NCBI GenBank assembly: GCA_964434115.1
Contig: CAYSSX010000001.1
Location: 329,459 to 393,458, forward strand
DNA: 64,000 nt
Reading direction: 5' to 3'
Origin: an uncultured bacterium
GTDB taxonomy: Bacteria; Omnitrophota; Omnitrophia; Omnitrophales; Aquincolibacteriaceae
Shown: one piece after another, positions 3,183 through 54,300 of the stretch
Layout of the letters: the number at the start of each line of letters is the position of its first letter
How positions within the stretch are numbered: position 1 is the first letter of the stretch
Notes under the pieces: generated by a model
What the model was told of the DNA's origin: nothing
The model's database searches: none
What the model saw: the letters and a program-made list of their open reading frames with translations, nothing else
Program-made: the position numbers and the translations under genes

Positions 3183-3190
3183 CGACTTTT

Positions 3191-5840: not shown

Positions 5841-5853
5841 GACAGGCCGGGGG

Positions 5854-9360: not shown

Positions 9361-10203
9361 TTACGCCGCGGATTCGACGGCTTTGCGGGAAAGGAATTCG
9401 GTGATAAACCGCTGCAAGTTACCGCGGTCAATGGACAGAACGCCGTCTCCGTCCATCTGCAAAAAGGACGGCCCTTCGTACTGGCCGCCCTTCAGAAGCG
9501 CGGCCCAGACTTTCTTCAAAATCTCGGCCCGGTCCTCCGGGTTCTTTTTCAGGCGCTCGGCCGTGCCCGCAAAATGCGAAGTCAGAAGCGCGCCCGAGAG
9601 CATCGCGATGAGCGCCGCGCTTTCAAAGCCGTCATCCGTCCCCGCCTCCCCCAGCAAGGTCACGGCAAAAGCACTGGCGTTACCCTGAAGCCGGGCCGCG
9701 TTCTCGGGGCTTGAAATCACCGGCATGCTTTCACCGTTGGAAAGCGAGAAACGCGCGCGGTAATTTGCCGGGTCATTCAAGGTTTCAAGCGGAATCCCCT
9801 CCGTATCCAGGAGGGACAAATCCATGCGCTTGGAAACGAGCAGGGTTTCAAAGCGCCCTTTCAAGGCCGGGTTTTCCTCGAGCACACGCCCCAAGGCAAT
9901 CTCTTCCCCCGGGACATCCAGAACCGCGCCCAGTTTTTCTGTTTGCAGAACACTTAACGCGTCCACAAACCAGCCCTGCGCAAAAGCCGCAAGGCGGCTG
10001 TCCATTTTAGGAGGCGCGGCCGTTTCCGAAACAGCGGCTTTCTTTTCCGCCGCCAAACGAACGCCTTCAAGTCTCAGCTCCGCGGCCAAATCCTCCAGAC
10101 CGACCTCTTGGACAACCGCGGCAACCCCGGAGGCCACCCTTTGCGACTGATTCGGATTAAAACCGTTTGAAACCAGGCCCTCGGCAAGCTGATGCGCAAG
10201 ATC
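9361..10203 (-). other. Conserved C-terminal module of giant protein 1 (~280 aa, ends ...AVESAA)
   Basis: Homologous to the C-terminus of giant 2: VVQEVGLEDLAAELRLEGVRLAAEKKAAVSE vs VVRTVLEDLALGRNLRREAAAVLAEKAQRQMPAVES, and GTAERLKKNP...FLSRKAVESAA vs TRITAERLKKLS...FSANRLIQSAA. Confidence 0.75.
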
Positions 10204-22200: not shown

Positions 22201-25200
22201 GATCATTTTGTTGATAAACGGGTCCAGAAGATCCGTGTCCTTGGCCCCGGGCTGAAGAATCGAAAGGGCGTATTCGGTTTCTTCACGGATGCTGAGGAAG
22301 AGCTTGGCAATAGCTCTTCCGCCCGCAAGGTCTGACGAAGATTTGGAAATCGCATCAATACTCAAACCGGGATTTTGTTTCTTGAAAAGAACCAGATAGG
22401 CTTTCACCATTCTTTCCATCGCGCTGAAAAGCAGGCGCATATCTTCCACCGTCTTGTCCTGTTTCATCAAAAGATTGATGACTTCCGCATTCAGGTCTTC
22501 AAAGGCTTCGAAGTCGCCCATGAGTTTCCGCGCCGCCGCATTCGACTGCCCCGCAGAACCGGTGCGGGAGAGCGAATAGGTGGTTTCATGAAACACCTGG
22601 TCACGCGGATCAAACTCATAATAGGAAACCGGTTTTTCCGCCGAAACCGAGGGGGTCACCCACGGGTATTGCGGCGCTGACTGAGGCCCCGGTGTGCCGG
22701 CGCCGGTCTGCTGATCAGGCTGCACCAGGTTGGTCCAGAAATCATGAGATGTCCCAGAGCTTTCAGGATCCATGTTCAAGATTCCTGAAAGAGCCGCTGG
22801 AGACACATTCGAATCTCCGGTCGCGCTCAACAAGCCATTATTTAAAGCCTCCCTGACAAGCAGCGCAAGCAGACGAAGCCGGACCGGGGCCGGGAAACCC
22901 GCAATTTTTCCCACAAGTTCTTTTCTCTGCTCCATACCCAGAATCCCGAAGACGCGCGCCAGGGATTCTGCGGCGGCCGCAGAGGGAGAAGCCCCCTCCA
23001 GGCGTTTGAAGAGAAGGTTGATCAACTGAGAGGCTTGTGCCGTATCGTCGGAAAGCACCGCGGGAAGGGCATGCCCAAGAACGCCTTCAACAGCTTCCGG
23101 ATGATTTTGCATGAGAGCCGCTAACTCAGCCCGCTGATTGTCCCGAAGTTCCTTATCAAGATAAGGGTAAATACGCGCCCGCAGAGACGCATCCTGATAA
23201 ATCTCTGCCTGCTCATAGAGATCGTCGATTACCGCGGCACGCTCCTCGGCCGTAAGCCCGGGCAGTGCAATCGCCATCCCTCGGACAGCGCCGGGATTTT
23301 TCAGTTCAAACTGCTCATCAAGGATTAAAAGGATTTCCTGGCGCATCGCGCCGTACCAGGGCGTGATTCCGGCATCAGGCGCAAGCCACCGGGCGAGCAT
23401 GTAACCAAGGCCTTCGTAATAACCTGCCTCCCCGCCTCCAAAACTTTTTAGGTAATTAAAAACCGCGTCATTCTCTGCGGGAATCATCGCCCCTGTGGCC
23501 AGGATCATTGCAAAAAAAGGCAGATCTTTCTCAGTCGAAAAACCGTAGCCCTCAGTGCCCTTGGTGACGGCGGAAACAATCTTGCCGCTCCATTCCAATT
23601 GGGCAGGTTCCGGCAGCAAATCAAACGCCCACGATTTTGCAAAATGGAGCGCTTCAGACACTGCGGCATCCCCGCTCCCCTGCGCCTCCAAAGCCGAAAG
23701 CTCGGCAAGGAATTGTTTGTGAAGAGCCTGCATCTGGTCCACGCTTTCCAAATCAATACCCGCGTCGATTTGAGCTGCGGGGCTCTGTACCGGATTAAGA
23801 CTATCAAAAAGGCTAAGATGACCGGCGGCCGCCAGGACAGCCGGAATGTCGCTTGAGATTTGGCCGGCGACCGCTTGAAGAATTTTCTGCTGCACGTCAG
23901 CGGGCAGAAACGAATACCTGTTTGCCAGAATAGCCAGAGCTTCCGGCTGAACGGAAGAGACCGTCAGCAGGACTTCCGCAGCCCGAAGAAATTGCTCTTT
24001 ATGAATGCCAAAGGCGCCCCCATAGGAATCAAAAATGAGTCCCAATGCCTTGAGCGCATTCTCATCCGCCGTGTTGTCCTGCATCTTTTTGAGGGCACTT
24101 TCAAAAACAGATTCGCGGTCGTCTTTCCGAGGAATTTGATTGCCCAGAAGCAGGTACGCAAGTCCTATCATCATTTGTTTCTCAGGCGCTTTATTGAGAA
24201 TTTTTTTGACCATTTTAGGATCCAGAACTTCCGGAGCGTTTGAACTTAAGAAAGCGGCAGCTTCGAAGACCTCGGCACTGGGGAATTTACTTTCAAGCTC
24301 TAAAAGAAGTGCGTTCTTGAACTCCACCGCTTTGCTTTTCATCGCCGGGGAAAGCTTGGAGAGAAATGCAGCCGCATGGGCCCCTTCAATCGGATATTCC
24401 AATTCCCCGGCTGTAACGAACTCAGAAAGATAATTATCGGCAAGCTTCTTCGAATGCGGATCCAGGTAGTCATACAGAGAGATCAAGGACGAGACAGCAG
24501 CCTGGCGGTCCAATGCATTGGAATGAAGTTTATTCAATTTATGCTTGAGGGTCGTGAAAACAGCGGCTATACGTTTTTGAGGGATTTTGTTTGCCAGCTT
24601 TCCCAAAGCAGCGGTGGCGGCAGCTGTATAGTGTTTATTGTTTTGGCTTGCCAGAGTCAGCAGCTTTGGGACAAGTTGATCCTGCACAATATCCGACGTA
24701 AGCTGAACTAAAAGATCCTGGGAGGGCAGCTTCGCACTCTGAATTGAGAGCGCCGTCAAAGCAGCATTCTGAATGAGCGGCATTTCCTGGTTCTCTTCCG
24801 CTGGCAGGCTGTCACTCCAGGCCTCCCTCGCAATCAAGCCTAATGCGTAAAATGCAAATAAAGCGGCCTGCTCTTCCGGTTTCGAAATTTTTTCAAGAAT
24901 GATTTTAAAAAATTCTGATTTTTCATCAGGGGTCAGGTGATCATAAATTGCTGCGGTATAGGGAAAGGCTGTCAGCTCCTTGCCTTCTTTCACCAACTGC
25001 AGCAGGTCTTTGCGGATACTTTCATTCAAGGCTTCATTATCAGAACTTGCCATGCCCTGTGCCAAAGCGGCCAGAAGCGCCGGGTTCGCAACCAAAGCCC
25101 CGGTTTTGATTTGTGCGGCCAGAGCCTTGTAAGCCGCGGCCCCTTGCGGGGAATCCGCAGAGTCGCCGCTTTCGGTGTGCAAATACAAAACGGCTTCGAG

Positions 25201-28200
25201 CCTGACTTTGGATTCCGGAAAAAAGGCGCCTGCCTTTTTTACCAGCTTTTCAAGACGTTCGTGCAAAGCCTGATCGAAGGTGTATTGAACGTGAGCCAGC
25301 GCCCATAACGCGCTTTTAACCCGCCCCGCATCGGTGTTCTGGCCCTGGGTCAGATTCAAGGCTTCCGCTTCTTTAAAGAGGATCTCCAAGGCTTGCTGAT
25401 AATCGTCAGCTTCCGGATCCATGGTTTCAGCCAGGATGCCTAAAGCAACCAGACCGTCGGGGTTCCCTTTCCGGGCAGCTTTCAAAATGACGGCTGGAAA
25501 GTTTTTAACTATGGCCCGGTGCTCCGGAGTGATAGCTTCCCCATAAGCCATGGCCATACTGATCAAATAGGGATTGAATTCCGGCTTGGACGCGGAAAAG
25601 ACTTTCAGGATTGCAGAGAAATCAATAGGCCATCCTGACCCGGGCGGTTCCCCTTTGGCTTTGAGATCTTTGAGAAACTGCGTCTGCTTGTCAGGGGGCA
25701 GGGCAGGAAAGGACGCGGCCATACTCCGGTTCCGGAAATCTACCATTCCTGCCGGAAGATCAGGTTCCGGCTGGGATGCCGCTGTTTGAAAGGCTTTAAG
25801 AATGTCCTCCTTAGAAGGCCCCTCTTCCGCACCTTGACCCGCACTGGAAGCTAAGGTTTGAGTGAACGGCTTTGCGGGAAGAAACTGATAGGGGGGTAAA
25901 GATTTTTCAGACTTTAATTCACTAAGTTCCGCCGTGACATCCCCCGCGATGATGGCCGCAGCTAAAAGCCCTGCCGAAGATCCGTTCTCAGCGAGAGATC
26001 CAATGGCCGCCACAATGGATCCAATAGCGGAGGACCCCTCGGGCACGAGCCCATAAATTTCAGCCAGGCCTTTGACGGCTTCGGGGTTTCCATCCGAGTA
26101 ACCGTTCAGCAGAGCTTGAACAATTTCCTCCATTCGCTGCTCATCGCCGGCATCAAGGCCAAGCTGCCTGCCGATGACTGCCAGCGCTTGGCCGGAATAC
26201 GGTATCCCCAGAATAAAATAATTAAGGATTCGTGCGTATGCCGCATCCCGCTGGCCGCTTTCCAAAGAACTATAGAGTTCCGCGAGTCCCAAAAGGGCTT
26301 CCGATTCATTCGATTGCATCAATTTTGTGTAAGCCGAAGAAAGGTCATCGGGATCACCGGCAATTTGAGCCAAAGCGCCGAGTGCGGCGAGCGAACCCGG
26401 ATATTCCGATTGACTGACTTCATAAACAATTTTTTTAATCGACTCCACTTTCGCACTGCCATTCTCGGCTTTAGCATAAACCTTGGCCATGTGAATCAGT
26501 CCGAAGAACGCTCCCTCTTTAAAATTATCTGCCCAGAGTTTGACGATGTCGTAAACGCTGTCTCTTTGAGCCGGCGAGAGGAACTCAAACAGAATTCCAT
26601 AGGCGTGAACGGCCGCGTTTCCTTCAACCGTGGTTTGACTCAGTTTCGATTTCAGGAGATTGAGAATATCCTGCTGCGCCAGCTCACTCGAAGACGGGTA
26701 AATATGCCCCAAAGCCTCGATTGCGAGCACATCCCCGGCCTGGGCCTTTTCCATAATCTGATTGCGATACTTGTCCCGGAAACCCATAAGAAACTCCTGT
26801 TTGACAAGCTTGTAAAAAACAGGCTTCTTTCCTTGCTCTGGGCCCCATGGAGGTAAAGGCGTCAAAACGTCTTCAGGCGCCTGCGTTCTCAGGGCAAAAG
26901 CCATACTGATCGCAATGCGTGCAGCCCGCTTTGCGGGGAGAACCTCCCCCGCGAGTTTTTCACTCAAGAGCGATGACACCTCGGAGCGTTTGGACACCGG
27001 CAGGGCGGCAAACATTTCCGCGAGGCCGAGCAGTGCCTGTTCCTGACGGGCGCTGAAACTTTCTGACCGGGCCTCAGCCATAACCTTGAGATAGATTCTC
27101 TCGGCCGCTTCAGGGGCATTCGGGGTCAGCCTGGAATAAATCCGGGCGATGCTCCTTATTAAAAAAGGTGCGGCTGCCGAGTTCGAGTCAATGAACCCCC
27201 AAGCATCCGAAAGGTCGGTGTTCTCGCTCGATAATGCAGCCAGGCTGTAGGCAAGCCCCGGAAGGTCTTCGGCTGTACTCATAGCTTGGGTGATTTCCGT
27301 CAGGAGAAAAGCAGGCAAAGCCGAAGGCGGATACTCGTAAAAAACTCCGAGGTAGCGGGCAGCTTCAAGCTGGCCAGTCTTAGAAAGCTCAATCAATCCC
27401 TCGATGAGCTGCTTTTTCTCTTCAGGGTTCAACGCCTCAGAGTCAGCTTCGAAAATATCGGCGAGCGCGTAAAACGCCTCATGCTTCCCCATCTTGGCCT
27501 GCTGAAAAAGATATCCGATGACATCACTGGCATAAATCCCGAGCGAAGAGTAAGCAATCCCCAGCGTGCGGATATTTCCGCTGCTCAGAAGAAGCGCCTG
27601 TGTGGTCGCCGGATTCTCACCCGACGGAAGACCGCCGCGCAGCACCCAGCCAAGGGCCTGCAGTTCGAGATCGTTTTCCTGTAAAGCGCCGGGCTGAACC
27701 TGCGTGTAAGACGACTTCAAATCTTCGATGAACCCACTCCGGAGTTTCTTGAGCTCCGTATAGCCGGGCGGCAGTCCTTCGAAGACCGGATCGTCTTCCG
27801 CGCGGAGTTCAGAACGGGCGGAAGCCGTATCCAAAACAGGCGCATCCGTCCCCGCCATTCTTGTTTGGGCGAGGTCGCTGGCCTGAATCGCGAGTCCTTC
27901 AGGGGTCTGAGTGATCCGGATCATGGGCCCGCCCCAGCGCGAGCCCGGTTCAAGAGCACCTTGCACAGCATCCACGGGACGCGCCGCGGGCCTGAGAAGC
28001 TGCGCAATGTTCTGTTCATTCAAAGTGCCGTTCTGCTCCAGACGCTTTAACTGTTCGATGAACTGTTCGATTTTTTCCAGCGCCGCGCTTGGCCCGCTGT
28101 CCTTGGATTTTGAAATTTCATCGAGAAAGCGCGTGTAAGCGCCGGCTTCGTCAAGCCTCCCCTGCGAGGCCAAGTCACGGAGGATTTGATCACGCCAGCG

Positions 28201-29811
28201 TTTCAAAAGAAGCGCGCGCGCGTCTGCAGGCGAACCCGCGCGGTTCTGAACCGCGGTGAGAAGCTGGTCACGGATCCCGCGATGAAAGGCGTCGTAGAGG
28301 TTGACCTCCCCCTTCTCCAAACGGAAATAAGCGCGCCAGGAAACATCGCCTTTCATCTGGCGCTCATAAGAAGTCTCTTGGGGGACGGCGCTGATTTCCG
28401 GCGCCAGCACCACAAAGGAAATGCCCCGCTCGCGGAACAGCCGCGTAAGTCCCGCGGTATGAAAACCTCCGGCCACAACCGCGGCGGAGGCAGGTTTCCC
28501 GCGCTCCAGAAGACGGGTAAGGTTCCGCATCATAAGGCTGTCGCGGGCCTCGGCGTTTTTGTAAAAGGTTTCCTGCGCGCGGAAGGCCCCGCTTTCAAAA
28601 CCCGCTTCAAACTCCTTCACGCGTCCGCGCATTTTTTCCCAATCCTCAAAACCCAGCTCCAGGGTCATCCATTTGCGCGTCATTTCAAGCCGCTCGGTTT
28701 CACGGTCAAGCGCCCGCTGGGCATCGCTTTGAAAAAGGGATTCTTTCACAGCGCCGGCATAGGCCTGGAACTCACGGAAAAAGAGGCTTCCTTCAAGCTG
28801 CTTCATTCTTTTCTCCGCCCAAAGCCCGCTCAAAAAGCCTGCGGGAAAAGCCGGTTCAAGCACGGTCCCTTGGGTCTGTTCATGCAGAAAAAGGGCAAAG
28901 GATTGGGGGCTTGCCTCGGAAGTTTGAAAACGCTGAAACTGTTCGTGAAATTTTTTGAGCTGTTCCTGGTGACCGGGAGCGGCGGGGTTCTCTTCCAGAA
29001 GTCTTTGAACTTTCCCGGCAAAGTCACGCAGAGCCAGACTTGAAGCTGTTTCACGGCCTTCCGCGGCAGCCTGTTCCAGCACCAGCGCGACCTGGGTTCC
29101 GGCATCCGGTTTCCGGAACGTCTCCAGCGTCTTAAGCACCTCCAAAAGCGGCGCCTTGTTTTCCTTAAACGCGAGAAGCAGGCGGTCAATGCGCAAAAGT
29201 TCCGGCGAATACAGCTTTTCTTTTTTTTGCTCCAAAGATGTTTCCAGTTTCAAGAGCACGGGTTCAAGCGCGGCTTTGCTTTTTTGCGCCGCGAGAAAGT
29301 AAGCCAGTCCCTCGTCATAAGCGGCCCGGTCTTCAAGTCCTTCGTAATCCGCAGGAATCCCGTTTAAAACCGCGGCCGCGGTCGGGCCGGCCAGTTCCCC
29401 TTTCCCCGAGAGCGAAGCCAGCACGCTCACAAGGCTTTCCTTGTCCGGATAACTGCGGAGGAGCTGCGGATCCAGGTGAGAAACAACGCCTTCAAGCGCC
29501 GTAAGCGAAGTTCCGTAAGTATTTTGAAAATGTTCGAGCAGGCGGCGGATGTTTTCCTGAGCTTCCGGAATAGCGTGCGCGTCCTGAATCAAAAAAACCA
29601 CGGGGCCTTTTTCCGCCTGAAAGACTTGATCCACGCGTCCCGCGCCCGAGGGAACTTTCAATTCTTTAAGATCCAGCGGCAAGGGCAGGAATTTCGGGGG
29701 CTGTTTATCCCGGGAGCTTTGCGCCTGAGCAGAGGGAACCTGCCCAAACGGAACCAGACAGAAAATCAGCGCAAGCGACACCACGCGCCTCATCCCGGAA
29801 TTTGAGATCAT
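9361..29811 (-). CDS. Giant modular secreted protein 1 (6816 aa): Sec signal peptide, conserved N-module, HEAT-like array, PEP-utilising-enzyme-like domains, triplicated module, conserved C-module
   Basis: A 20,451-nt ORF without a stop in a ~60% GC background. Sec signal MRRVVSLALIFCLVPFGQVPSAQA. Seven R-S-E-L-R boundary motifs. Its N- and C-terminal modules are shared with the 47491..59496 ORF. Confidence 0.85.
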   Translation of the reverse strand: MISNSGMRRVVSLALIFCLVPFGQVPSAQAQSSRDKQPPKFLPLPLDLKELKVPSGAGRVDQVFQAEKGPVVFLIQDAHAIPEAQENIRRLLEHFQNTYGTSLTALEGVVSHLDPQLLRSYPDKESLVSVLASLSGKGELAGPTAAAVLNGIPADYEGLEDRAAYDEGLAYFLAAQKSKAALEPVLLKLETSLEQKKEKLYSPELLRIDRLLLAFKENKAPLLEVLKTLETFRKPDAGTQVALVLEQAAAEGRETASSLALRDFAGKVQRLLEENPAAPGHQEQLKKFHEQFQRFQTSEASPQSFALFLHEQTQGTVLEPAFPAGFLSGLWAEKRMKQLEGSLFFREFQAYAGAVKESLFQSDAQRALDRETERLEMTRKWMTLELGFEDWEKMRGRVKEFEAGFESGAFRAQETFYKNAEARDSLMMRNLTRLLERGKPASAAVVAGGFHTAGLTRLFRERGISFVVLAPEISAVPQETSYERQMKGDVSWRAYFRLEKGEVNLYDAFHRGIRDQLLTAVQNRAGSPADARALLLKRWRDQILRDLASQGRLDEAGAYTRFLDEISKSKDSGPSAALEKIEQFIEQLKRLEQNGTLNEQNIAQLLRPAARPVDAVQGALEPGSRWGGPMIRITQTPEGLAIQASDLAQTRMAGTDAPVLDTASARSELRAEDDPVFEGLPPGYTELKKLRSGFIEDLKSSYTQVQPGALQENDLELQALGWVLRGGLPSGENPATTQALLLSSGNIRTLGIAYSSLGIYASDVIGYLFQQAKMGKHEAFYALADIFEADSEALNPEEKKQLIEGLIELSKTGQLEAARYLGVFYEYPPSALPAFLLTEITQAMSTAEDLPGLAYSLAALSSENTDLSDAWGFIDSNSAAAPFLIRSIARIYSRLTPNAPEAAERIYLKVMAEARSESFSARQEQALLGLAEMFAALPVSKRSEVSSLLSEKLAGEVLPAKRAARIAISMAFALRTQAPEDVLTPLPPWGPEQGKKPVFYKLVKQEFLMGFRDKYRNQIMEKAQAGDVLAIEALGHIYPSSSELAQQDILNLLKSKLSQTTVEGNAAVHAYGILFEFLSPAQRDSVYDIVKLWADNFKEGAFFGLIHMAKVYAKAENGSAKVESIKKIVYEVSQSEYPGSLAALGALAQIAGDPDDLSSAYTKLMQSNESEALLGLAELYSSLESGQRDAAYARILNYFILGIPYSGQALAVIGRQLGLDAGDEQRMEEIVQALLNGYSDGNPEAVKGLAEIYGLVPEGSSAIGSIVAAIGSLAENGSSAGLLAAAIIAGDVTAELSELKSEKSLPPYQFLPAKPFTQTLASSAGQGAEEGPSKEDILKAFQTAASQPEPDLPAGMVDFRNRSMAASFPALPPDKQTQFLKDLKAKGEPPGSGWPIDFSAILKVFSASKPEFNPYLISMAMAYGEAITPEHRAIVKNFPAVILKAARKGNPDGLVALGILAETMDPEADDYQQALEILFKEAEALNLTQGQNTDAGRVKSALWALAHVQYTFDQALHERLEKLVKKAGAFFPESKVRLEAVLYLHTESGDSADSPQGAAAYKALAAQIKTGALVANPALLAALAQGMASSDNEALNESIRKDLLQLVKEGKELTAFPYTAAIYDHLTPDEKSEFFKIILEKISKPEEQAALFAFYALGLIAREAWSDSLPAEENQEMPLIQNAALTALSIQSAKLPSQDLLVQLTSDIVQDQLVPKLLTLASQNNKHYTAAATAALGKLANKIPQKRIAAVFTTLKHKLNKLHSNALDRQAAVSSLISLYDYLDPHSKKLADNYLSEFVTAGELEYPIEGAHAAAFLSKLSPAMKSKAVEFKNALLLELESKFPSAEVFEAAAFLSSNAPEVLDPKMVKKILNKAPEKQMMIGLAYLLLGNQIPRKDDRESVFESALKKMQDNTADENALKALGLIFDSYGGAFGIHKEQFLRAAEVLLTVSSVQPEALAILANRYSFLPADVQQKILQAVAGQISSDIPAVLAAAGHLSLFDSLNPVQSPAAQIDAGIDLESVDQMQALHKQFLAELSALEAQGSGDAAVSEALHFAKSWAFDLLPEPAQLEWSGKIVSAVTKGTEGYGFSTEKDLPFFAMILATGAMIPAENDAVFNYLKSFGGGEAGYYEGLGYMLARWLAPDAGITPWYGAMRQEILLILDEQFELKNPGAVRGMAIALPGLTAEERAAVIDDLYEQAEIYQDASLRARIYPYLDKELRDNQRAELAALMQNHPEAVEGVLGHALPAVLSDDTAQASQLINLLFKRLEGASPSAAAAESLARVFGILGMEQRKELVGKIAGFPAPVRLRLLALLVREALNNGLLSATGDSNVSPAALSGILNMDPESSGTSHDFWTNLVQPDQQTGAGTPGPQSAPQYPWVTPSVSAEKPVSYYEFDPRDQVFHETTYSLSRTGSAGQSNAAARKLMGDFEAFEDLNAEVINLLMKQDKTVEDMRLLFSAMERMVKAYLVLFKKQNPGLSIDAISKSSSDLAGGRAIAKLFLSIREETEYALSILQPGAKDTDLLDPFINKMIQELDARSSASLILTPAEQTEKDHPALIKGVTYAEYRQYQQQVLGGIAKETARYDAIKGTSFHELVNIVHQKGVRNLSTLFPSDGSAAQGAVLLNQKGTGGALGPLLNVPFSYLDARSAPDSNHPLPVKLAAVALAKGQLIHRNNLLFPVKDAVILSTENRALINLPLGVHSARIQLSLAPVQETGRLFINYTDSGSYYAPGSNIRIDSLAAAFTAAGFKVRKVGYTLDASFDKDSNASSLAEMIEKLEFAIQALTSTKDLDLRINETDSLKTNPGQAAEKIAERFSEDGFLVRDSGVPFMLQAPRPDLAHWKGVGKEFNVPLEGTGQRFLDRLSRRLQQAADRSEAVYAPGGTLGFSVSFQEAALRSPVEALLQNLFPEGADGGLSLDARQTAALALMIRPFAEHRVLASVGRYEVERIVIPLLYEDLTIDLIKDPESQAYYGGAAYLGRFYSPEQTYDRARGIKLNGNHLSSEGLLELLKLHGFGQTHAGRELLKARSVETAPGQSSLDASVSSEEAVNSVAQVKGVFDPEGLFEKSTARHAVSPLSIGGLSVQPGKTLAVARFKKEGRSPEDFRGALWIGESADNTDDPHLFASLGIVMTTGGVQSHGSVRAGENRKPGSIFNTARITPEGFSFEGYSDYASETQIDFKGRTLSYYELKAGNQKTHTIREGDLVYLDAREGTLYVIAEAGEAGGKTLADFQAFLDWKNQSGYEAARQGQQAAEGAVIDLAPLEKLFKTLDSESLFRAILDELLDSNLLSPESLSRLMEALGDRKDLQGIVKDFLRGRAGNEVDNFEKGLADLLARLKSPLAQSPAGLDALYLDVERFMSRADSLQGMIALANGTWQGRITAKEIEAGKVSVRETAHRQIRIYLQALFYGIRDFLTRAAQFPAHELSMLLSYRSLILRAGAVGAPDQVLDAMGLSGDLQELESRTLTLRGERENEVKALQGLGILWKSDLKDRFSRPLAGGKGSNSAETLHAIEFLKSQNKIPAGFQVEAPQGFAIQPAEYERWFKTQGDLEEDLKRTLALAYRDLTVKQIESVLKLIEADDRTAAGIKQDLEKKILEPALNALRAAEDPVVIDGLVNLLRNFTVSFLSIYLPQAISVSLANRLRVLGAVAVRSSGLKEDSEEEAMAGMKETKLNVTGTAGLFAAVRDVWASGAESILIDEMINPKTSGTAFSADTASRDLSVVRIEAAHGLAKGLVDQTVKDPDYFLISKPSAKGQSYQFQREHIGQKQEKVVLDFESGGYAVIANDEALRSQSSLTREQQLAVAAVVDGFSAYFGYPVDVEFSIDADNRIIPLQVRPITTLREAVKRGQDALRSELRSEEEAESYRFIAAPADFGKVPGFSSRTYARSVSKGVTEFFFKKTRAYPFEDMGRFQLGNLTFRMVRFPESLQAERESSQSGGALVGAASPKYLLEVFLANEKGEGKWRKLDDVEIHDGQPLFIYRSKTSHVSLPGLFDLFLNKSEQLDAASQLDESGEIRDGRSAVVISWKDENGLVRNYYLPNMISPDRPETITQITRISRSAADDPGAADRITIDLDKAEAAQAPAAPKGWLPHQIEDFVRPGHLMLMTDVLGGQDFVILQNQGSTNGFHVEERLVPSPRKKAPKEPLSQDEQSLADDQEASEILESVQPEHSLVLQPRNFVEGDGGKLQFFYDGPFRIDYGSDPVIGFHVSEGRLYVQAQGHRPRAIKPNRVNLELGKQHFEVQYANGRVTVTNHNPDEASQIYVLKGGFPRSELRAMQDDEPGLPAVPGPGEGAMVPGGAQPSKPGGLLARIGNVIQKGVDRVKFNAAMRDVRRKSGSVDLHWFNQHVERGVEFSLSVLEVMLQPGTYAQLDRRARQHLAYFLLSRRLPEGYEPYVRQRLGRLDAEGVASAFLVNNGGEEIVPNILRYNTPEGNDLVRQLLKHHNPSVRRLVFQHLIRASTNHVGSASEILKAERFLGDQLSIRQVLEKFSENDDQGFYAYVPQPTLVDLRNIAELPFEVNLFNRGEQIVILKGNESSVSAMFPGKNTISSNLHNHPDDNIFPSGYQRRAYGFRSDEYRGDLMSVGSAGFHLIVTRRGILRFFREIGDVKGKPGEIKVRFQDKSEIDFKAQIIKEGAAERFYFDDDSPELLDDSGRVRAFRATGLLGPSGQVFGLQFYDWRSLAGSFLAGGKQKAFEKFIPPLLFNPGGLTEGQALEFENFFRDLIPIDDTARERLSKYEKAGVSAAQAGQAPAGGADYQTVSTAASSELMPYHAGGLEGALVSEIESVLPSLDQIEVHLQVLLASDYAAGIAFADGYLSAAQPPEVKQAVFKGLENGAQWLQGADADRYLSLGIMDPDSRVNGAALGLLGKAPQDSDILGAVKKAFTRSVEVTRLVRMTGRLNLSPEQKKGLFLFYTQSSAVYRNLLSESFSRDLYGYAPQDLFFSLVQAKLPPEMNEEIITAGYRNLSAFEMGGLEGTTGTGHIRLIPRLNLGDSELQRLAELMTRMGRPHAAQLYADQMKQPVTIIDEESVRTLGPSETRSDFLQELEGLTAADRKKKLLEWGGGWAQAYGRIKREDYKGAYRLEMEMEDVFRGLARWGLGEDFNRDLLNLLTHQIPKPRGETSAYLITEMGALLGGIPLSPDDAYGLYQSLSAQGMNFFNGKARRGIPVVIISIGESRYLTPMQKKGLFQKAFSDHAMASNHWLGDLYENDLSRPLYQSERNLEWALDALLAARLSPEEDMELIALIPMLRPETHASVVQSMAALGIEADARFGFMETVKTRHPEYLKHLKNYMAEKTRQSLEEQREALSGRRSAIATVLPDSGEPPLALPGPGSENRSELRAAFSLEQKSVLSMVSEWARSGIANQPGSDALVAGFNELISGMRDFPDAEIFARFTALIYRIRSDFQQVPLPQEMESAGLGQYALDSLMSQHRPTQFLGAHGIAYLGPALDLEFSAVPGLREKLLTELQSLASHSDGKDRSVMAAMLALGVPLKSVHAFGKFSGSLENATDSAEQHLLGAFNADQRPLIEDETLLNPAGPRLRELQKEEWFNLILSPERSGRIQQQLARLRMADHHYEAILQIARYRFMAPQAVAGIIELSHAQTPLYRGAPLHLLQLLSLAGPGSVERGLDEAISILVNQDSSLGMIEAALTMILGMGPAGSKASLEVVRVLQSRMNDEEEGVRFLAAETLGAIGNTSEFILDALKEAAEKDTQESVRYFSRNALASLKGLLEERGGDSGELSRSELRAAFTADQKAVIGLVADSLNASLASQPGSEEIRASLERLRDGLGNFPDSEIFARMAVALDRIRSTYPAMALPEELEDTGLGLYARALLDSEYRPNVLLAALGIAYLGPALSFEFTNDSRLRGELLQRLDALMATAGQEVDRRFVMAKIALGIPVREAFTGSRFSGADENLFGVAPMTASDYLRFFQRPDRSVAVQNLRNRLAEQPANFGIHFQLTPYRFLAYSVVPIAVFFLQHPEAYPAAHQHLIELIGHQGAGGIDQGLDELLRILQNSRDNPSLLGNVLKALTMSGPAASRAAPQVLPLLSGAAVLDETLMTSAVDALAALGNTNRNVLAALSLLSEDSRSESVRQAADRALDSLTGLSRERGEARSELRAAFTEDQKAVLEMVVDSLSASLAAQPDSGEIRASLQRLRAGISTFPDTEIFARITALIDRIRTTYPAMGLPQELEDTGLGLYARALLDSEYRPNALLAALGIAYLGPALSFEFAKEAGLRTQLLSGLRQWMRADGGQRRDRRLVSALMALGVTRARALSGKDFTGLEEDTITSSEVLVEAHTDIYPELEENGPLEMHRLNAAEYLNFIQAPNRAEIIQNEINLLMAPNAARFAGVLGLLPFRFFAHSTVPRMVELLQQAEAYPGEYGNLVHLIGFQGAGGLDLGMDALVHVLETPSLHGLNLNFAIMGLTIMGPAAVRAAPSVLKILTDDENPVDLLVVEDAILALGALGDTRQEILDELTHLAEQAPEQHLREAAAAALASLTALAAERGEEPRSELRDLAHQLAEGLVSNGFNPNQSQRVASGVAAVVQEVGLEDLAAELRLEGVRLAAEKKAAVSETAAPPKMDSRLAAFAQGWFVDALSVLQTEKLGAVLDVPGEEIALGRVLEENPALKGRFETLLVSKRMDLSLLDTEGIPLETLNDPANYRARFSLSNGESMPVISSPENAARLQGNASAFAVTLLGEAGTDDGFESAALIAMLSGALLTSHFAGTAERLKKNPEDRAEILKKVWAALLKGGQYEGPSFLQMDGDGVLSIDRGNLQRFITEFLSRKAVESAA
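10204..13755 (-). repeat. Intragenic tandem triplication of a ~370–410-aa module in giant protein 1
   Basis: The three units lie at about 12532..13740, 11416..12516 and 10219..11400. Each begins RSELRAAF.(E/D)QK.V and contains the block EIFAR...ALI.RIR...P...LP.E.E..GLG.YA...L.S..RP. Copies 2 and 3 retain ~150-nt near-identical DNA patches (11057..11205 vs 12168..12321). Confidence 0.85.
18260..19520 (-). other. PEP-synthase/PPDK-type nucleotide-binding (ATP-grasp) domain-like segment in giant protein 1
   Basis: GGKGSNSAETLH (19271..19294) resembles the GGKxANLxEM motif. AVRSSGLKEDSEEEAMAGMKETKLNVTGTAGLFAAVRDVWAS resembles VAVRSSAtaEDlpdaSFAGqqeTyLnv...avkrcwASL. TSGTAFSADTASRDLSVVRIEAAHGLAKGLV resembles SGVmFTidP.tG.rdvvvIeaswGLGe.vV. 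Confidence 0.6.
20300..20560 (-). other. PEP-utilising-enzyme mobile (phosphohistidine) domain-like segment in giant protein 1
   Basis: ARFKKEGRSPEDFRGALWIGESADNTDDPHLFASLGIVMTTGGVQSHGSVRAGENRKPGSI matches the ILV..TdP....Givte.GG.tSHaAivARe.giP pattern of PF00391-type domains. The conserved His is in the expected position. Confidence 0.6.
20600..27800 (-). repeat. Long HEAT/ARM-like alpha-solenoid array inside giant protein 1 (~2400 aa)
   Basis: Recurrent 30–40-aa units of the PBS-lyase/HEAT type, for example ALGALAQIAGDPDDLSSAYTKL, LLGLAELYSSLESGQRD and AVKGLAEIYGLVPEG. Boundaries are approximate. Confidence 0.5.
27817..29811 (-). other. Conserved N-terminal module of giant protein 1 (~665 aa including the signal peptide at 29719..29811)
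   Basis: Aligns by eye with the N-terminus of giant 2: FLIQDAHAIPEAQ vs LLKDAHAVPEAQ, VVAGGFHTAGLTRLFRERGISFVVLAPEISAVP vs LAAGGFHAEALSERLAREKISFAVVVPAVPALP, and WRDQILRDLASQGRLDEAGAYTRFLD vs WRDQVIRRLAAENRLAEAGQYTRFLD. The module ends at the first RSELR (27802..27816). Confidence 0.8.
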
Positions 29812-47490: not shown

Positions 47491-48393
47491 TTAGGCCGCG
47501 CTCTGAATCAAGCGGTTGGCGGAGAACTTGAAGGCTATTTCGAGAACCAGACGCGTGATACGGAGACGGCTCCCCTGCATCTGGAGAATCCCCGGCAGAA
47601 ACTCGGACAGTTTTTTGAGACGTTCCGCCGTGATCCGCGTCTTCCCGTCTTCGGCCAGCATCCGGGAAAGCAGAATCACCACGGGCAGCTCCTCACCGGC
47701 TTCGACTTCCGAAAGGACCGCGCGTCCGGAGAAATCGGAAAGCAGTTCCGCGTCCGGGAGACCGTAGACCAGGGCGCTCCCGAACTCATGCAGGTAACCC
47801 GCCAGGGATGCCGACAAAACCGCCTCGTTCATCTCCACGGGCGTTGCCACGCCCAGACTTCCCGCTTCCTGGAAAAAATCTTTCACGGCCGGGTCCTCCA
47901 TTTCATGCTCGAGCACCATCACCTTGACTTTCGCGGTCAACTGGGAAGGAAACGCGTCCCGGAGGGCTCCGAGTGTTCTTAAATAATTCAGCAGCCCGGC
48001 GCGCGCCTTTTCACTGCGGGGCAGCCGGTAGCCAAAAGCAAAAACGAGTTTCTTGGAAGTGTCCGCGCTCAAAGCCTTACGCACATCCCTTTCAAAACCG
48101 GCGAGCAGTTCCTGATAAAAAGCCGTTTGGGCCGTATCGTAATCGGGGTGCACTTCCTGGACATCCTCGGCCGCGGCCCGCCGTGGTTCCGATCCCGCGC
48201 TGAGAAGACTCGCGTAATGGGGATCCTGTCCCTGCTCACGCAAAGCCGATTCTACGGCCGGCATTTGACGCTGCGCCTTTTCGGCCAGCACGGCGGCTGC
48301 CTCCCGCCGCAGATTTCTTCCAAGGGCCAGGTCTTCAAGAACCGTCCGAACAACGTCCTGAAGCGCCTCGGCGCCGGTGTCTCCGCCGGACAA
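47491..48393 (-). other. Conserved C-terminal module of giant protein 2 (~300 aa, ends ...RLIQSAA)
   Basis: Paralogous to 9361..10203 (see that feature). Confidence 0.75.
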
Positions 48394-51300
48394 GCGCAGT
48401 TCGGAGCGCGCCTTGGCCTGCTCGGATTGCTTTTTCAACGCTTCGTAAATCTCCCGGTGTTCATCCACCAGCAGTTTCAGACTCCCCGAAAGAAGGCCGT
48501 GATAATCCTGGGTCAGGGTTTCAAAAAACGGCATGCTGAAGAAAAATCCCCGGGAAATTTCATCCAGGTTAATCGCCAGAGAAGCCTTTTCCTCATCATC
48601 CAGAATGTAGGCGTAAATCGTGACCCACTCCCGGTTCACCAGCCCGCCCTGAAATGATTCCCGGGGAAAACCGTTGGGCGGCGAAAGCAGAAGCAGCTTT
48701 TCGGGTTTGATTTTCAAACGGATTTCCTCTTCGGTTTCGCGGATCGCGGCCTGAATCCTCGACTCTCCAAGGTTCACGTGTCCGCCGGCCGAGACTTGAA
48801 GTTTTCCCGGCGACATATCTTTATTCATGCTTCTTTCCTGTAAAAAAAGCTTTCCGTTTTTGTCAAACACATAGACCTGCGTGACCGCGTGCCACTCGCC
48901 TTCCTGATGCGCCTTCAGCTTGCTCTGTCCGACAGCCGTAAGAAACTCTCCCGTGGCCGGATCCACGTACTGAAGAATCTCATCCGCGTGCGTGTACAGC
49001 TGATGAAAACTGCGGTCCAAAGTTTCCGTTTCCGGATGATCCGGAAGAGCGCGGAGCTCAGCGCGGCTGGCCTGGGAAAGCGTGCCTCCTGCGGCAATAT
49101 TCGAAACGCTCAAACGCCGGGAATTTCCCCGCTTCGGAACCGGACCGCCGCCCTTGCCCTTGGGCCTTACCACAGCGTTCGGAGAAAGCGCGAGCTCTGT
49201 GATGGTGAAAACACCCTTGGGCGTTTTTCCGGCTTTTTCAATTTCGAAAACCAGTGCGATTTTTGCGGTCTTCACGCCTTTCAAGGGCAAGGAGGAAAGA
49301 TCCAGCACCAAGGCTTCCCCGGGCTTCGGGGCACTGACTTCTAGGGTTCCAAGAACTTTTCCTGCGGGAGAATCGTCACTCAATTCAATCTCGAACTTGT
49401 CCGGAAGCACCGACTCTTTGCTAAATGCGATGCGGAGGGATTTAAAGGCTTCCGCGTCAGCGGCCTTGAAGTTACCGGTAAATCCACTGAAGCGGTTCTT
49501 GTTATCAAGGCTGAAAGCGATCTGGATCGAGCCGTCCGTATTTTTCTTTTCCATGTTATCCGGGGCCTTTTCAAGGTTCGTAAACATCGCAATCCCGGTA
49601 AACGCGGCTAAAAGGTCCAGGTCTTTACGGTTCACGGCCGCGTAGCGCCGGTCAAAGGCCTGAAACTCGGCGGCAATGTCGGGGTAATCTTCCCACTCCG
49701 CCACCACGGCGCGGAGAAACGGCGCTCCAAGCGCTTCAAGAATGAGACCCTGATTCATATAAATGCGTTTTTCGTGATACGGCGCGCCGGTCTTGGGATT
49801 ATAGGAATCCCCAAGCCCCCACAATTCACGGTAACCGTTGCGCTTGGTCACCGCGCGCACAAAGGCCTCAGCATTGTCCACGGATTCCGGGACATCGCTA
49901 AGCAGCGCCAGAAAGGGTCCTGCCGCCACGAGCACCGAGGCATCTTTAAGACCGTAGACAGCATAGGAATCCGCTTTCTCTCCGCTGCCAGGCGCCGACA
50001 CAGCCGCAACGTGCGCTCCTTTTTTGGCCACGGCCCGCGCGGCCTGAAAGTAATTTTTAGAACTGACCGCAAGCACGGCAGGCGAAACCTTGGCCGGGTC
50101 TAAAAACTGCAGGCCTTCGTATTCGGTCCAGGCGGATAAATTGGCGTCTCCATTGCCGATCGGAACATCACCCGCCGTGCCGGCCGCTTCCACCCATTCG
50201 TGACGCAGTTTTTTGAGAACTTCCAGTCCCTGAGCGCGCCGCGTCTTGAAATCCTTTTCCGGGTCGCCAAGGACTTCCGGCATCAAGAAGAAATCCCTGG
50301 CCTCCGTATGACGGTTATCAATAAAGGATTCGTTCAGAGTCAGGCTTTTATCTGCCGGATTCACAAACACCTGGCTGCGGAGCCTGCCCTCTTTATCAAG
50401 AAAGCCGCGGTAGTCCGCCTTGGCAAGCAAGGCTTCGGCTTTTTTCACAATCGTTTCATCTTTAAGGCCGCGCACGTACCCGCCTTTGAAAACTTCGGCA
50501 AGCAATTTTAGCCTTACGTGCGTCAGCGCCATATCGTAGGCCGCATAAGCCACACCTGTCTGGCCTTCTTTGCCGGGGATTTTCATCAGCTCCGTCTTAA
50601 AAGGCTTCGCGGCACCTTCTTTTTCATAAACAAGCGTTTCAGGCAATAGCCCGGTGTTCACGCCGTTGATGCGCAGGCCGAACTGATCCACCATTTTTTC
50701 AAACATCTCAAGCGATTTTGTGATTCTTTCCGTGACCTTTTTGGGATCACTCAGGGCTCCCCGGTCGCCAATGGGAAAATTGGAATGGGACAAAGCCGCG
50801 AGCAGGTCTGCACTCCACATAAACCCGATGTCCGCGGAACGAAGCCATGTTCCCACGGGATTGCGCGGCGCTTCACCCTGGTTGTAGGGCATTCCCACCG
50901 GAGAACGCATGCTCAAAAGACTGATCTGCGTATCGCGGTAAACCGGGCGCAGCGTCATGCGCCGGAGAAACGGATTCACGGGAAGTTTGATCTGACGCGG
51001 CTGATCTGCCGGAGCCTTTTTCTGCTGAGCCGCGGCAGGTCCTGTCATTCCCGTCAAGGCCGAAAGCCCCGTGGCCGTGGCCGATACCCAGCGGATAAAA
51101 TCCCTGCGCGTGGGATCCTGGCCCTGGCTCCTTAACTCCGAACGGTGCGGAAACACTTTACCCAGGACCCAGTCCGGATTTCTCAGGATTCGGGACCGGG
51201 TTTCCTCCAGCCTGCGGCCGGCCGCCGAAAAATGGGCATGAAGATCATTGACCGTCTTCTGCTGCAAAAGTCCGCTTTCATTAAGCACGCCGTGCGACAT

Positions 51301-54300
51301 CAATCCTTGAAGAATCTCAAGCGAGCGCAGGACACTGGCCCTGTCGCGCCGTTCTGTCTGGATCCGCCAGTCCAGAAACTCAAGAATATCTCCCGGGTGA
51401 GCGGGGTTGGAATCATACGTTTCCTCTTCATCGAGACGTTCCAGAAGCCTTAAATACGCAAGCAGTGTCTCGATTTTCTCCTGCGGGACTTCGCTCTCTT
51501 CATACCAGGCGGCGATAAATTCACGAGGCAAAGACTGATAGGGCACCACAGCGTTCAGAAGCGTATTCCAGCGCCTTCCGGTTTTCTCGAGGGTTCTTGC
51601 GATGCGTTCCCGAACCTCTCTCATTTCCCGGACCGATGTAACCACCTGGGCACTGTACTGAAAAAGACCCATAACCAGAAGGACCAAAACTGCCGCGCTG
51701 TAGAATTCAAATCCCTGAACAATCATACTGACTGCCGTAAGCGAAAGGCCTGCGGACAGAGCAAGCCCCGTAAGTAAACCGGGCCGCATGACCTGCACTT
51801 TTAAAAACCGGTCGCGGTCCCTCAGCACGTGCTCCATGGCATCCTGCCACTGATCATCCAGCGTCACGTATGAAAAGTCCTCCCGCTCTGCACGAAGCTC
51901 CGAACGCACAGGCGCTTCTGACGGCAGATCAATCGTGAACACCGTGCCCTCGCCAGTTTTGGTTTCCACGGAGATCTTTCCGCCCAGGCTGTTTTCAATC
52001 GATTCTTTCGTGAGCGCCAAACCAAGACCTGAGCCCCGGCTGCCTTTGGTGGTGAACAACGGTTCAAAAATCCGGGGCAGGACATCCTCGGGGATTCCGG
52101 TGCCGTTATCCCGCACGGTTATGCGGAGCGCAAACTGACTTTCTTCAGAATCCAGGGATTCCATTTTGAGGGTAATGCGGCGGGGGCGTTCCGGCGGGTT
52201 ATCTTCCGTCGCGTGCGCCGCGTTAATCACAAGATTGCGCAGCGCGCGGTAGAGCTCAAGAGGATAGGTCCGGATAAAAACAAAGCTCCGCGTGGTTTCA
52301 CCTTCCACCACGGCCTCCCCCGTGCTCTCAAAACCGGACACAGCATCTCGCAGCAAGGTCAAAGGACGCAGCATTTTAAGCGCTTCAACCTCAAGCCCCA
52401 AGGGCTGCGCGGTGAATTGATAAACCCAAGCCGACTGGGTCACAAGCTGATCTGCCGCTTTCTCGGCCTTCGGGTGGGAAGATTTCCGGATGCGTTCGGC
52501 CTCGACTTGAATTTTATCCGCCGCGAAAAAATCCCGAAGATCCTGAAGGAGCTTGAGAACCACGGCCTCCTTTGCTGGACCCGGATTCATGCTGCGGGCC
52601 GATGAATACCGCGATTTGAGAGAGGCGTAAGGCTTATAGAAATCCGTTCCCATCACTTCTTCGACCTTGGAAGCGTTCAAAGGATCAATTGTCGAATCCA
52701 CCAGCTCCAGCAGAGACATAATGTTTCCAAGCTCATGAAGGATTTGCCCGCTCGGAAGTTCCCCTTCGATTCTCACCAAAGCTTCAAGCGGCGCGGCCTG
52801 CGCTGAATCCGGGTCGCGGATCTCCAGCTCTTCATCAATCCGGAAAGCCAGGTCCTTGGCAAAAGCCTTTTCAGCCTGCGCCGTCAAGGTTCCGTAATTT
52901 CCTAAAATGAACGCGGTCAAAATCATGGAAGCGACATCAAACCCCGCCCCTCTGGCCAAGGCATTCAAAGCAGTTTCGACGACTTTCGGGTCCGCGTTTT
53001 GATTAAAGATAAGGCTGATGAGCCGGTCCAGCGCCTCCTGGTTCGCGGCAAGCCCCCCAATGGCCCGGACCGCGGAACGCGCCACCTGAATCGTTCCCGG
53101 CTGCCGCAAAATTTCAGACAGCGACGCGAGATCGCCTTCCTTTTCAAAAACCTTGATCAGTCCCATCAGGATCAGCGCGGGCACTTCGTCCTTCCGGGCA
53201 ATCTCCCGCAGAACCGGCAGGGCTTCCGCGCGTTCCGCCGCGGGAAACTCCGCGAGTGTGCGGATCGCGGCGTAGCGGACTTTTTCGCTGGGGTGAATAA
53301 GCCCAAAAATAACCACTTCGAACAGCGTGTGATGAAGCTTGAGAGGGTTTTCACCGGACAAGACAAAACCGATCCGGTCCATCAGGCGGACAAGACTCCT
53401 TTCCACCCGGGGCCCGTCGCTCATCTGCCAATCATCCAGGTCTCTGACCATCGGGCCTTCTTTGATATTTTTCGGAACAAAGGTTTCATAAATCGTCAGG
53501 TGATCAAAAACTTCTTCGTCCTGACTCACCGCGTCATTCAGCGCGCTGACACGCCTCACGATTTCCGGATCCGTAATGTCGTCGCCTTCTTCCGCGGCCT
53601 TCCGGGCAAGCTCAATCAAATGCTGATTCCGGTCCTGCTCCGAGCGAAGTTCGGAGCGGGGCTTGGGCGTCTCGTCTCTCGGAAATACCTGCAGGCCGGA
53701 CGCCCGCGTGTCAGAAGAAAACTGCATTCTCTGCAGGTCCACGGTCATTCCCTGGATCTGACCATCCGGGTAGCGCACAAGACTGCGGACGCCGTTTTTT
53801 CCAAGGCGCCGGATAAGGGACCTGTGAAAGGCCTGGGCTTCGGGCGTTTTGTCGATGCCCCACTCCCCGCGGTTATTCACCGGACCGATCTGAAAAGTTT
53901 TAAACCCCTGATTTTTGAGCATCTGGAAAAGCCGCCGGGCCAAAACTATTCCCAGGCCGCTGCCGCGCAAAGCAGGATTCACGTACAAACCGTTCCCCTG
54001 CAGACTCAAGTTGTGCGTGTCGGCTTGAAAGGCCCAGGCCGCGGCAGGCTGCCCGCCCAGGTACGCGATAAACACATCATTTTCAATGTCCCAGCGAATC
54101 GACCCATCCGGATCCGCGTAACGGTCAAAAAATGCCCAGTCAGAAAAAAGATCGGATTTCTCCGCCCGCCCCAGCACAGGGTAAGGCGCTCTTAACCCGG
54201 CCAAAAAGAAAGGTTCATCCTGCGTAAAATCACTGCCCATCAGGCGGAACTCAACGCCGCTGCCGCGCACCGTTCTGCGCAGGGCCAGCCTTGCCTCTTC

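Follow-up and report, generated by a model that had tools for sequence, protein, structure and literature searches.

What could a twin-arginine translocation (Tat) signal peptide be doing deep inside a giant protein? The question is raised by a 64,000-nucleotide (nt) stretch of contig CAYSSX010000001.1 from an uncultured Omnitrophota bacterium (the window), which carries two giant minus-strand open reading frames (ORFs), g1 and g2. On translation, g2 (47491..59496 (-)) yields 4,001 amino acids (aa) organized as nine modules parted by eight R-[SA]-E-L-R motifs, and directly behind one of these motifs lies a twin-arginine signal, followed by a module with a predicted beta-1,2-glucanase-like fold. 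The companion ORF g1 (9361..29811 (-); 6,816 aa) belongs to the same family, sharing the N-terminal domain and the ...SAA C-terminus and bearing seven RSELR motifs. We propose that g2 is a polyprotein cut at R-S-E-x-R and that its glucanase-like module is exported in the folded state by the Tat pathway, a reading to which we assign a probability of about 0.55.

An internal twin-arginine signal in g2

Residues 2779-2840 of g2 read ...GKVFPH-RSELR-SQGQDP-TRRDFIR-WVSATATGLSALTGMTGPAAA-QQKKAPADQPRQIKLP..., where HRSELR occupies aa 2784-2789 and the QQKK that follows WVSATATGLSALTGMTGPAAA reaches aa 2827. An earlier note on this DNA had placed a twin-arginine signal at about residue 2790, right after HRSELR, and translation confirmed both the sequence and its coordinates. 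The RSELR itself (aa 2785-2789; 51130..51144 (-)), where processing is proposed to generate the N-terminus of a Tat precursor, is surrounded by low predicted local distance difference test (pLDDT) values in the AlphaFold2 (AF2) model. It is followed by the n-region SQGQDP and the twin-arginine motif TRRDFIR (together aa 2790-2802; 51091..51129 (-); TRRDFIR alone, aa 2796-2802, nt 51091-51111), and then by the h- and c-region WVSATATGLSALTGMTGPAAA (aa 2803-2823; 51028..51090 (-)), which leads into the Ala-x-Ala site AAA|QQKK, ending at nt 51016.

The motif TRRDFIR fits both the twin-arginine consensus (S/T)-R-R-x-F-L-K and the TatP-style pattern RR.[FGAVML][LITMVF]. The h-region ahead of the AxA signal-peptidase site is weakly hydrophobic, with a mean Kyte-Doolittle hydropathy of 0.78 for WVSATATGLSALTGMTGPAAA versus 1.8-2.1 for the transmembrane (TM) helices of g2, and basic residues (QQKK...R..K) lie downstream of the AAA site. 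The position alone departs from that of a Tat signal, as the motif is found at residue 2796 of 4,001 and not at the translated N-terminus.

Running a signal predictor on the sequence that cleavage would liberate, a check named in the earlier note, returned a Tat call: the 60-aa fragment after RSELR scored 17.1 bits against the NCBIfam model TIGR01409 (TAT_signal_seq; cutoff 16.7), a marginal pass, and four of ten liberated fragments from relatives also passed, at 17-24 bits. With the entire 693-aa module as the query, the TIGR01409 score falls to 7.2 bits, and the g2 signal does not reach the cutoff of the Pfam Tat model PF10518 (11.8 versus 22.7 bits). When g2 was shuffled, 25% of the sequences contained a match to a loose Tat pattern, defined as RR.[FGAVML][LITMVF] with 13 or more uncharged residues; only 3.2% of g2 lies within 16 aa after a motif, so the joint chance for g2 alone is about 1%. 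The Tat evidence from g2 by itself is modest.

The RSExR motif marks module borders

The motif that precedes the signal is strongly over-represented in both giants: R[SA]ELR occurs 8 times in g2 against 0.04 expected and 7 times in g1 against 0.05 expected, and it is absent from the rest of the window in a scan of all frames. Besides the copy ahead of the Tat signal, g2 contains RAELR at 57445..57459 (-), 54958..54972 (-) and 49051..49065 (-), and RSELR at 56833..56847 (-), 53644..53658 (-), 51892..51906 (-) and 48394..48408 (-). The RAELR at 49051..49065 (aa 3478-3482) closes the glucanase-like module behind a disordered tail; the earlier note, correct for the RSELR at 51130-51144, had set this next RAELR one base off, at 49050..49064. 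A logo built from 95 copies in 14 giants reads [AS]-R-S-E-[L>V,M]-R-[A>S,T], with acidic residues next.

The motif copies delimit units recognizable by Pfam as GNAT, HEAT + HATPase_c and NUDIX, the g2 matches being GNAT at 1732-1873, HEAT at 2125-2182, HATPase_c at 2412-2527 and NUDIX at 3538-3647. They always stand at module borders, in low-confidence linkers (pLDDT <50 near the motifs in both AF2 models), and these linkers are presumably disordered. The layout expected of a polyprotein is thus found in g2: one ORF holds several autonomous modules, a short conserved motif marks every boundary (8 motifs, 9 modules), and in the AF2 models this motif falls within accessible, disordered linkers. 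A hydrophobic 15-mer begins within 35 residues after 31% of motifs, compared with 20% of background positions (P = 0.009).

The 15 R[SA]ELR copies of g1 and g2 are written in many different synonymous codons, which indicates selection on the peptide and not on a DNA or RNA element; a nucleotide-level role of the motif as repeat, hairpin or recoding signal is thereby ruled out. The codons also bear on the suggestion that the module arises without proteolysis, as a separate product of translation that starts internally near the motif or of mRNA that is processed there. The E-L-R-S codons GAG TTA AGG AGC (51130-51141 (-)) spell a Shine-Dalgarno-like AAGGAG, and in one related giant (P0008) a Met stands two residues behind the motif. 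However, no nucleotide element is conserved among the 15 copies (TTA AGG occurs in 3/15), a Met after the motif is missing in most relatives, and g2 has no in-frame ATG, GTG or TTG between RSELR and RR. The nearest in-frame upstream Met lies 52 aa before RSELR, in keeping with the earlier view that an internal start is less convincing. We consider such a start very improbable, and the AAGGAG string is probably coincidental.

In g1, aa 5353-6536 (10204-13755 (-)) comprise three tandem paralogous modules of ~370-410 aa each, every one opening with RSELR-AAF[ST]x[ED]QK[AS]V. This shared RSELR start points to module duplication with the motif as the boundary of the duplicated unit.

The module behind the signal has a predicted glucanase-like fold

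AF2 modeling of the module, based on a 16-sequence alignment, gave a mean pLDDT of 86 with a core above 90. Residues 1-49, the signal region, were disordered, and residues 660-698, the tail before RAELR, fell below 50. The core is a predicted (alpha/alpha)6-barrel domain (aa ~2834-3294; 49615..50997 (-)), for which Foldseek against the PDB retrieved 8xuj (E 4.7e-13, TMt 0.78) and 5gzh (E 8e-11) together with 4gl3, 4qt9 and 8wy1, the matches including the cyclisation domain of cyclic glucan synthase. A C-terminal beta-sandwich (aa ~3299-3438; 49183..49602 (-)) resembles the carbohydrate-binding module (CBM) families CBM11 and CBM6 (1v0a, E 2.4e-5; 1gmm) in the same kind of comparison.

The likeness to endo-beta-1,2-glucanases of glycoside hydrolase family 144 (GH144) and the SGL clan (5gzh, 8xuj), which are secreted or periplasmic enzymes, is one of fold alone. 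The (alpha/alpha)6 barrel is shared (TMt 0.73-0.79, E down to 5e-13), whereas identity is only 12-15% and the g2 module carries an extra CBM-like domain. The module has no sequence match in Pfam, NCBIfam or the PDB, and a PDB profile search was empty; calmodulin matches in the PDB sequence and profile searches were spurious, falling on a helical insert. DUF3131 has no Pfam match in g2, and only one distant stand-alone relative (P0021) matches it, weakly. Taken from the models, the module after the Tat signal is a confidently folded, predicted extracytoplasmic-type enzyme, beta-1,2-glucanase-like with a CBM-like domain.

Relatives retain a twin-arginine signal next to the motif

An exhaustive phmmer search of 1.84 billion representatives identified 21 relatives of the glucanase-like module. 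Fifteen are giants or giant fragments, in which the position of the module varies widely; the giants with the module range from 1.8 to 7.1 thousand amino acids (kaa), and homologues occur almost only inside giants. The remaining relatives are mostly stand-alone proteins of 280-510 aa. A word-index homologue search gave one partial match for the N-terminal domain and none for the module, the latter because the 90%-identity cluster of g2 is represented by a 47-aa fragment. This representative hides g2 from representative-based searches, and the same effect may hide many giant proteins from routine homology searches. A metagenome scan had a single match, the contig encoding P0001.

Nine of the 12 giants (g2, P0001, P0002, P0003, P0008, P0010, P0012, P0014 and P0015) share one arrangement: R-[SAP]-E-x-R, 2-9 residues, RR-x-[FALW]-[LIF], an uncharged h-region, and then the module. 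The junctions include RAETR-AMG-RRDFLSS, RSELR-LT-RRSFF and RSEVR-AID-RRAFLG. In the other three (P0004, P0007 and P0011), a more hydrophobic segment of the Sec-type anchor kind, with no RR, stands ahead of the module. Among distant homologues that stand alone, the signal is N-terminal and of the Sec type or, in P0021, of the Tat type (SRRQLLKK). Module homologues elsewhere therefore do carry signals, whose absence the earlier note had listed as a possible refutation. All the refuting checks of that note that could be run turned out in its favor.

The coupling of signal and motif extends well beyond g2. The 14 giants, 55,118 residues in all, contain 10 matches to the Tat pattern, and 8 of these follow a motif at a distance of 2-8 residues, although only 2.8% of giant sequence is that close to one (binomial 1e-11). 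The two exceptions are a hit in P0005 after a decayed-looking RSDVI and a false positive in the GGFH motif of the N-terminal domain. The twin-arginine signal next to the motif is kept across relatives that are 27-51% identical.

Two fragments from another lineage, P0006 and P0013, have TRRDFL or TRRVFI signals with no recognizable RSExR. In the lineage of P0006, P0013 and P0019, where Tat signals (TRRDFL, TRRVFI) come without RSExR, a repeated ...PYPPSFRGE... stretch lies between modules and is possibly a different boundary motif. In P0005, a second, different glucanase-like module opens, in the region of aa ~1675-1720, with a strong Tat signal, SSRRDFLKTSF (TIGR01409, 23.8 bits).

A genome scan recovered one orthologous metagenome-assembled genome, CAYRBY01, in which the gene is 78-88% identical, split over two contigs, and retains all alignable motifs. 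The 16 codons from RSELR through RRDFI are identical to those of CAYRBY01 even at synonymous sites, and in aa 2802-2823 (R2802 to A2823) 10 of 22 codons differ non-synonymously, with AAAQQ kept. At the sequence level, a fixed motif, n-region and RRDFI beside a drifting h-region is the signal-peptide mode of evolution, and in the three relatives without RR, Sec-type anchors have taken the place of the signal.

Proposed processing at RSExR and alternative readings

Under the mechanism that we propose, g2 would belong to a family of giant Omnitrophota ORFs with polyprotein behavior, their modules bounded by [AS]-R-S-E-[LVM]-R-[AST] in disordered linkers. A site-specific protease would cut at or just after RSExR on the cytoplasmic side. 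A cut after R2789 would place SQGQDP-TRRDFIR at the N-terminus of the resulting precursor, which would thus begin with an ordinary Tat signal peptide: 7 residues of n-region, an h-region of weak hydrophobicity and, at AAA|QQ, a site for signal peptidase. The Tat translocase would then export the folded enzyme of ~620 aa, beta-1,2-glucanase-like and joined to its CBM-like domain, and signal peptidase would release it. Of the neighboring modules, GNAT, HEAT/HATPase_c and Nudix bear no signal and would remain cytoplasmic, and modules opening with hydrophobic segments would go to the membrane.

Cleavage at the motifs with separate routing of the modules had already been put forward in the earlier note. 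Comparative architecture and the extracytoplasmic-type fold favor that proposal; the cleavage itself we infer from the architecture, and likewise a scissile bond, a protease and a working Tat system in this organism.

Two architectural features argue for a cut. First, P0003, P0012 and P0014 open with a classical Sec signal peptide and a soluble N-domain of ~600 aa, after which come RSExR, the Tat signal and the module. If these chains stayed uncut, a Tat signal behind a Sec-exported N-domain would end up either on the wrong membrane side or wrongly oriented. Second, in g2 and P0001-P0003 a Nudix module, a cytoplasmic-type enzyme (in g2, aa 3483-3696; 48409..49050 (-)), and a further ~300-aa module follow the glucanase-like module with no membrane segment between. 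An uncut chain would therefore export the Nudix and C-terminal modules as well. A cut at RSExR would resolve both the conflict of the two signals and the location of the Nudix module, and would create natural n-regions of 2-9 residues.

The strongest uncut alternative invokes dual Sec/Tat insertion: g2 would be a giant membrane protein whose upstream helices are inserted by Sec, whose RR-preceded segment becomes the last TM helix via Tat, and whose downstream part crosses the membrane in the folded state and stays tethered. The Streptomyces Rieske protein and two other families do have an internal twin-arginine motif before the final helix (PMC5449189; PMC13186574), and the premise of the earlier note that a Tat signal works only near a free N-terminus was too strict. 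In such proteins the final helix is weakly hydrophobic, positive charges follow it, and an even number of Sec-inserted helices precedes it (PMC5449189). These internal signals have been proven to work in this way, with the weakly hydrophobic final TM domain and the following positive charges as hallmarks (PMC5449189), and g2 fits, with a segment of hydropathy 0.78, QQKK...R..K behind it and no TM segment after aa 2823. A 2-TM hairpin (aa 2574-2622; 51631..51777 (-)) lies ~165 aa upstream, in the preceding module; it had previously been described as immediately preceding the signal, which its position does not bear out.

The family as a whole fits dual insertion poorly. The hairpin is confined to g2; the signal is directly preceded by a HATPase module in P0001 and P0002 and by the Sec-exported soluble N-domain in P0003, P0012 and P0014, so that a conserved even number of preceding Sec-inserted TM domains is not found. 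Export would extend to the ~520 aa that make up the Nudix and C-terminal modules, and the AxA site and the tight coupling to RSExR would be left without a role. No cofactor-binding exported domain is evident, the cargo having a glycoside-hydrolase fold. The comparison with the best-described examples, Sco2149 (the Streptomyces Rieske protein) and Sco3746 (Tooke et al. 2017, PMC5449189), follows the same lines: they share with g2 the internal RR, the weakly hydrophobic final helix and the downstream positive charges, whereas in the g2 family helix number is not conserved as even, cytoplasmic-type modules follow, and the cargo is of glycoside-hydrolase fold and not a cofactor protein. On balance, we regard dual insertion as unlikely.

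Alternatively, the signal may be a relic or a plain anchor: the module would come from a captured stand-alone gene for a Tat- or Sec-secreted product, the RR segment would now serve as an anchor or do nothing, the giant would be a surface protein exported by its N-terminal Sec signal, and RSExR would be a structural linker or binding motif. The anchors without RR in three relatives agree with this, as do the Sec signal peptide with which every giant begins and the published view of the giants as membrane-anchored coat proteins (PMC10066038). A relic should decay, yet RR-x-[FAL]-[LIF] is retained in 9 of 12 lineages at 27-51% identity despite h-region drift. As a stop-transfer segment behind an exported N-domain, the RR would face outward and break the positive-inside rule, and modules dependent on ATP and acetyl-CoA would end up outside the cell. 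We therefore hold a relic or anchor to be distinctly unlikely.

Returning to cleavage at RSExR, two protease candidates are encoded within the giants themselves. The N-terminal module of g2 (57445..59496 (-)) consists of a Sec-type signal peptide and the domain common to all giants, with the first RAELR at its end; its invariant residues H80, E108 and H475 lie in the motifs QDAH, EG and GGFH. This TIKI/TraB-like N-domain is a candidate protease. Its AF2 model has a pLDDT of 76, and neither Foldseek with this model nor PDB sequence and profile searches gave a significant or meaningful match. The second candidate is a module at aa 884-1509 that contains HEMTH, an HExxH motif (aa 1328-1332; 55501..55515 (-)), directly after three TM helices and is a putative membrane zinc metalloprotease. 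P0001 and P0002 keep HEMTH, and P0010 and P0015 contain further HExxH motifs, against a chance expectation of ~0.08 per protein; the HExxH module has no Pfam, NCBIfam or PDB match. Such a protease could act in trans. HExxH as a universal cis protease was rejected, only 5 of 13 giants having the motif, and the ~300-aa C-terminal module after Nudix was rejected as a conserved protease, its conservation being confined to the last ~25 residues. Pfam and NCBIfam likewise returned no match for the N-domain, the C-terminal module and the hairpin modules.

Several observations weigh against the polyprotein reading. The TIGR01409 pass of g2 is narrow, and the signal of the close orthologue scores under the cutoff; neither tatA nor tatC was found within the 64-kb window. 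The modules of the concordant giants share one ancestor, so their agreement represents long-term conservation and not independent origins. Internal Tat signals work without cleavage in dual Sec/Tat proteins (PMC5449189). With regard to the protease, the HExxH module is missing from most giants, g1 included, and the N-domain lies behind a Sec signal peptide and would therefore be periplasmic; if it is a protease, its own Sec signal would put it on the wrong side of the membrane.

Comparison with known systems and implications

Ordinary N-terminal Tat signals (TIGR01409 / PF10518; for example, those of periplasmic glycoside hydrolases) resemble that of g2 in their S/T-R-R-x-F-L-K-type motif, weak h-region and AxA site, in the basic residues near the cleavage site and in their folded enzyme cargo. 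Unlike them, the g2 signal begins 2,795 residues from the start and would become N-terminal only after a cut at RSELR.

The organization of g2 also recalls that of MARTX toxins, in which one giant ORF encodes an array of unrelated enzymatic modules freed by cuts in the inter-module linkers. In MARTX an internal cysteine protease domain (CPD) cuts after Leu inside the eukaryotic host cell, whereas g2 has no CPD, a proposed R-S-E-x-R site and modules bearing bacterial targeting signals. Viral polyproteins with internal signal sequences, such as those of flaviviruses, offer another parallel: a single product has its segments sorted across a membrane by internal signals and proteolysis. Those systems belong to eukaryotic viruses and operate co-translationally through Sec61 of the endoplasmic reticulum and signal peptidase. 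To our knowledge, no cellular bacterial counterpart of a viral-type polyprotein using Tat has been reported.

The closest relatives in composition are the Omnitrophota 'Archaeovorins' (West-Roberts et al. 2023, bioRxiv 10.1101/2023.11.21.568195), which share with g2 the phylum, HEAT_2, HATPase_c, NUDIX, GNAT and glycoside hydrolase domains and many TM helices; compared with them, g2 and g1 are small (4.0 and 6.8 kaa). In the present analysis, the phylum follows from the name of a 90%-identity cluster and not from a phylogeny: an inositol-3-phosphate synthase encoded on this DNA belongs to a cluster called Candidatus Omnitrophota. For the 'Archaeovorins', cleavage was suspected and the cleavage points were stated to be unknown (bioRxiv 10.1101/2023.11.21.568195). 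Seymour et al. (PMC10066038) saw the giants as single surface proteins, and a 2026 preprint survey treated them as single proteins with a signal peptide and TM segments or with TM segments, downgrading internal signal-peptide calls as artefacts. In open-access papers and bioRxiv, we found no description of the RSExR motif or of a motif-coupled internal Tat signal in these giants, nor any paper linking Omnitrophota to polyproteins or Tat.

It is an explicitly open question whether Omnitrophota giants work whole or are cut into pieces, and the over-represented boundary motif supplies concrete candidate cut sites. A conserved Tat signal right after this motif is understandable only if an N-terminus lies nearby or the handover is unusual. 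If our interpretation is correct, g2 would be a cellular bacterial polyprotein whose modules are sent separately to different compartments, for which we know of no described counterpart, and topology and function prediction for the largest known proteins would change.

A broader and more tentative extension, against which we would still place the odds, is that giant ORFs of Omnitrophota are in general cleaved according to an R-S-E-x-R code, with polyproteins replacing operons. One product, perhaps of up to 100,000 residues, would then give rise to dozens of enzymes, each addressed separately by Sec, Tat, a TM anchor or no signal at all, supplying the cytoplasm, membrane, periplasm or cell surface, and every giant could be cut in silico and annotated piecewise.

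C-terminal ends and neighboring genes

The giants also resemble one another at their C-termini, where every family member has ...[S/A/Q]-[S/A/Y/M]-Ala-COOH behind an amphipathic helix. The ending is RLIQSAA in g2 (47494-47514 (-)) and KAVESAA in g1 (9364-9384 (-)), and VSA, TSA, MAA, QAA or ASA in other giants. This shared C-terminus looks like a C-terminal recognition tag.

Elsewhere in the window, the ORF at 4614-6014 (-) encodes 466 aa, has a hydrophobic segment at its N-terminus and is without a match in Pfam. Just downstream of g2 lies a gene for a hybrid PAS-HisKA-HATPase-REC-Hpt kinase (43333-46221 (-)), and nearby are two genes for single-domain response regulators (42517-43323 (-) and 41080-41922 (+)) and a LOG/lysine-decarboxylase-like gene (41929-42480 (-)).

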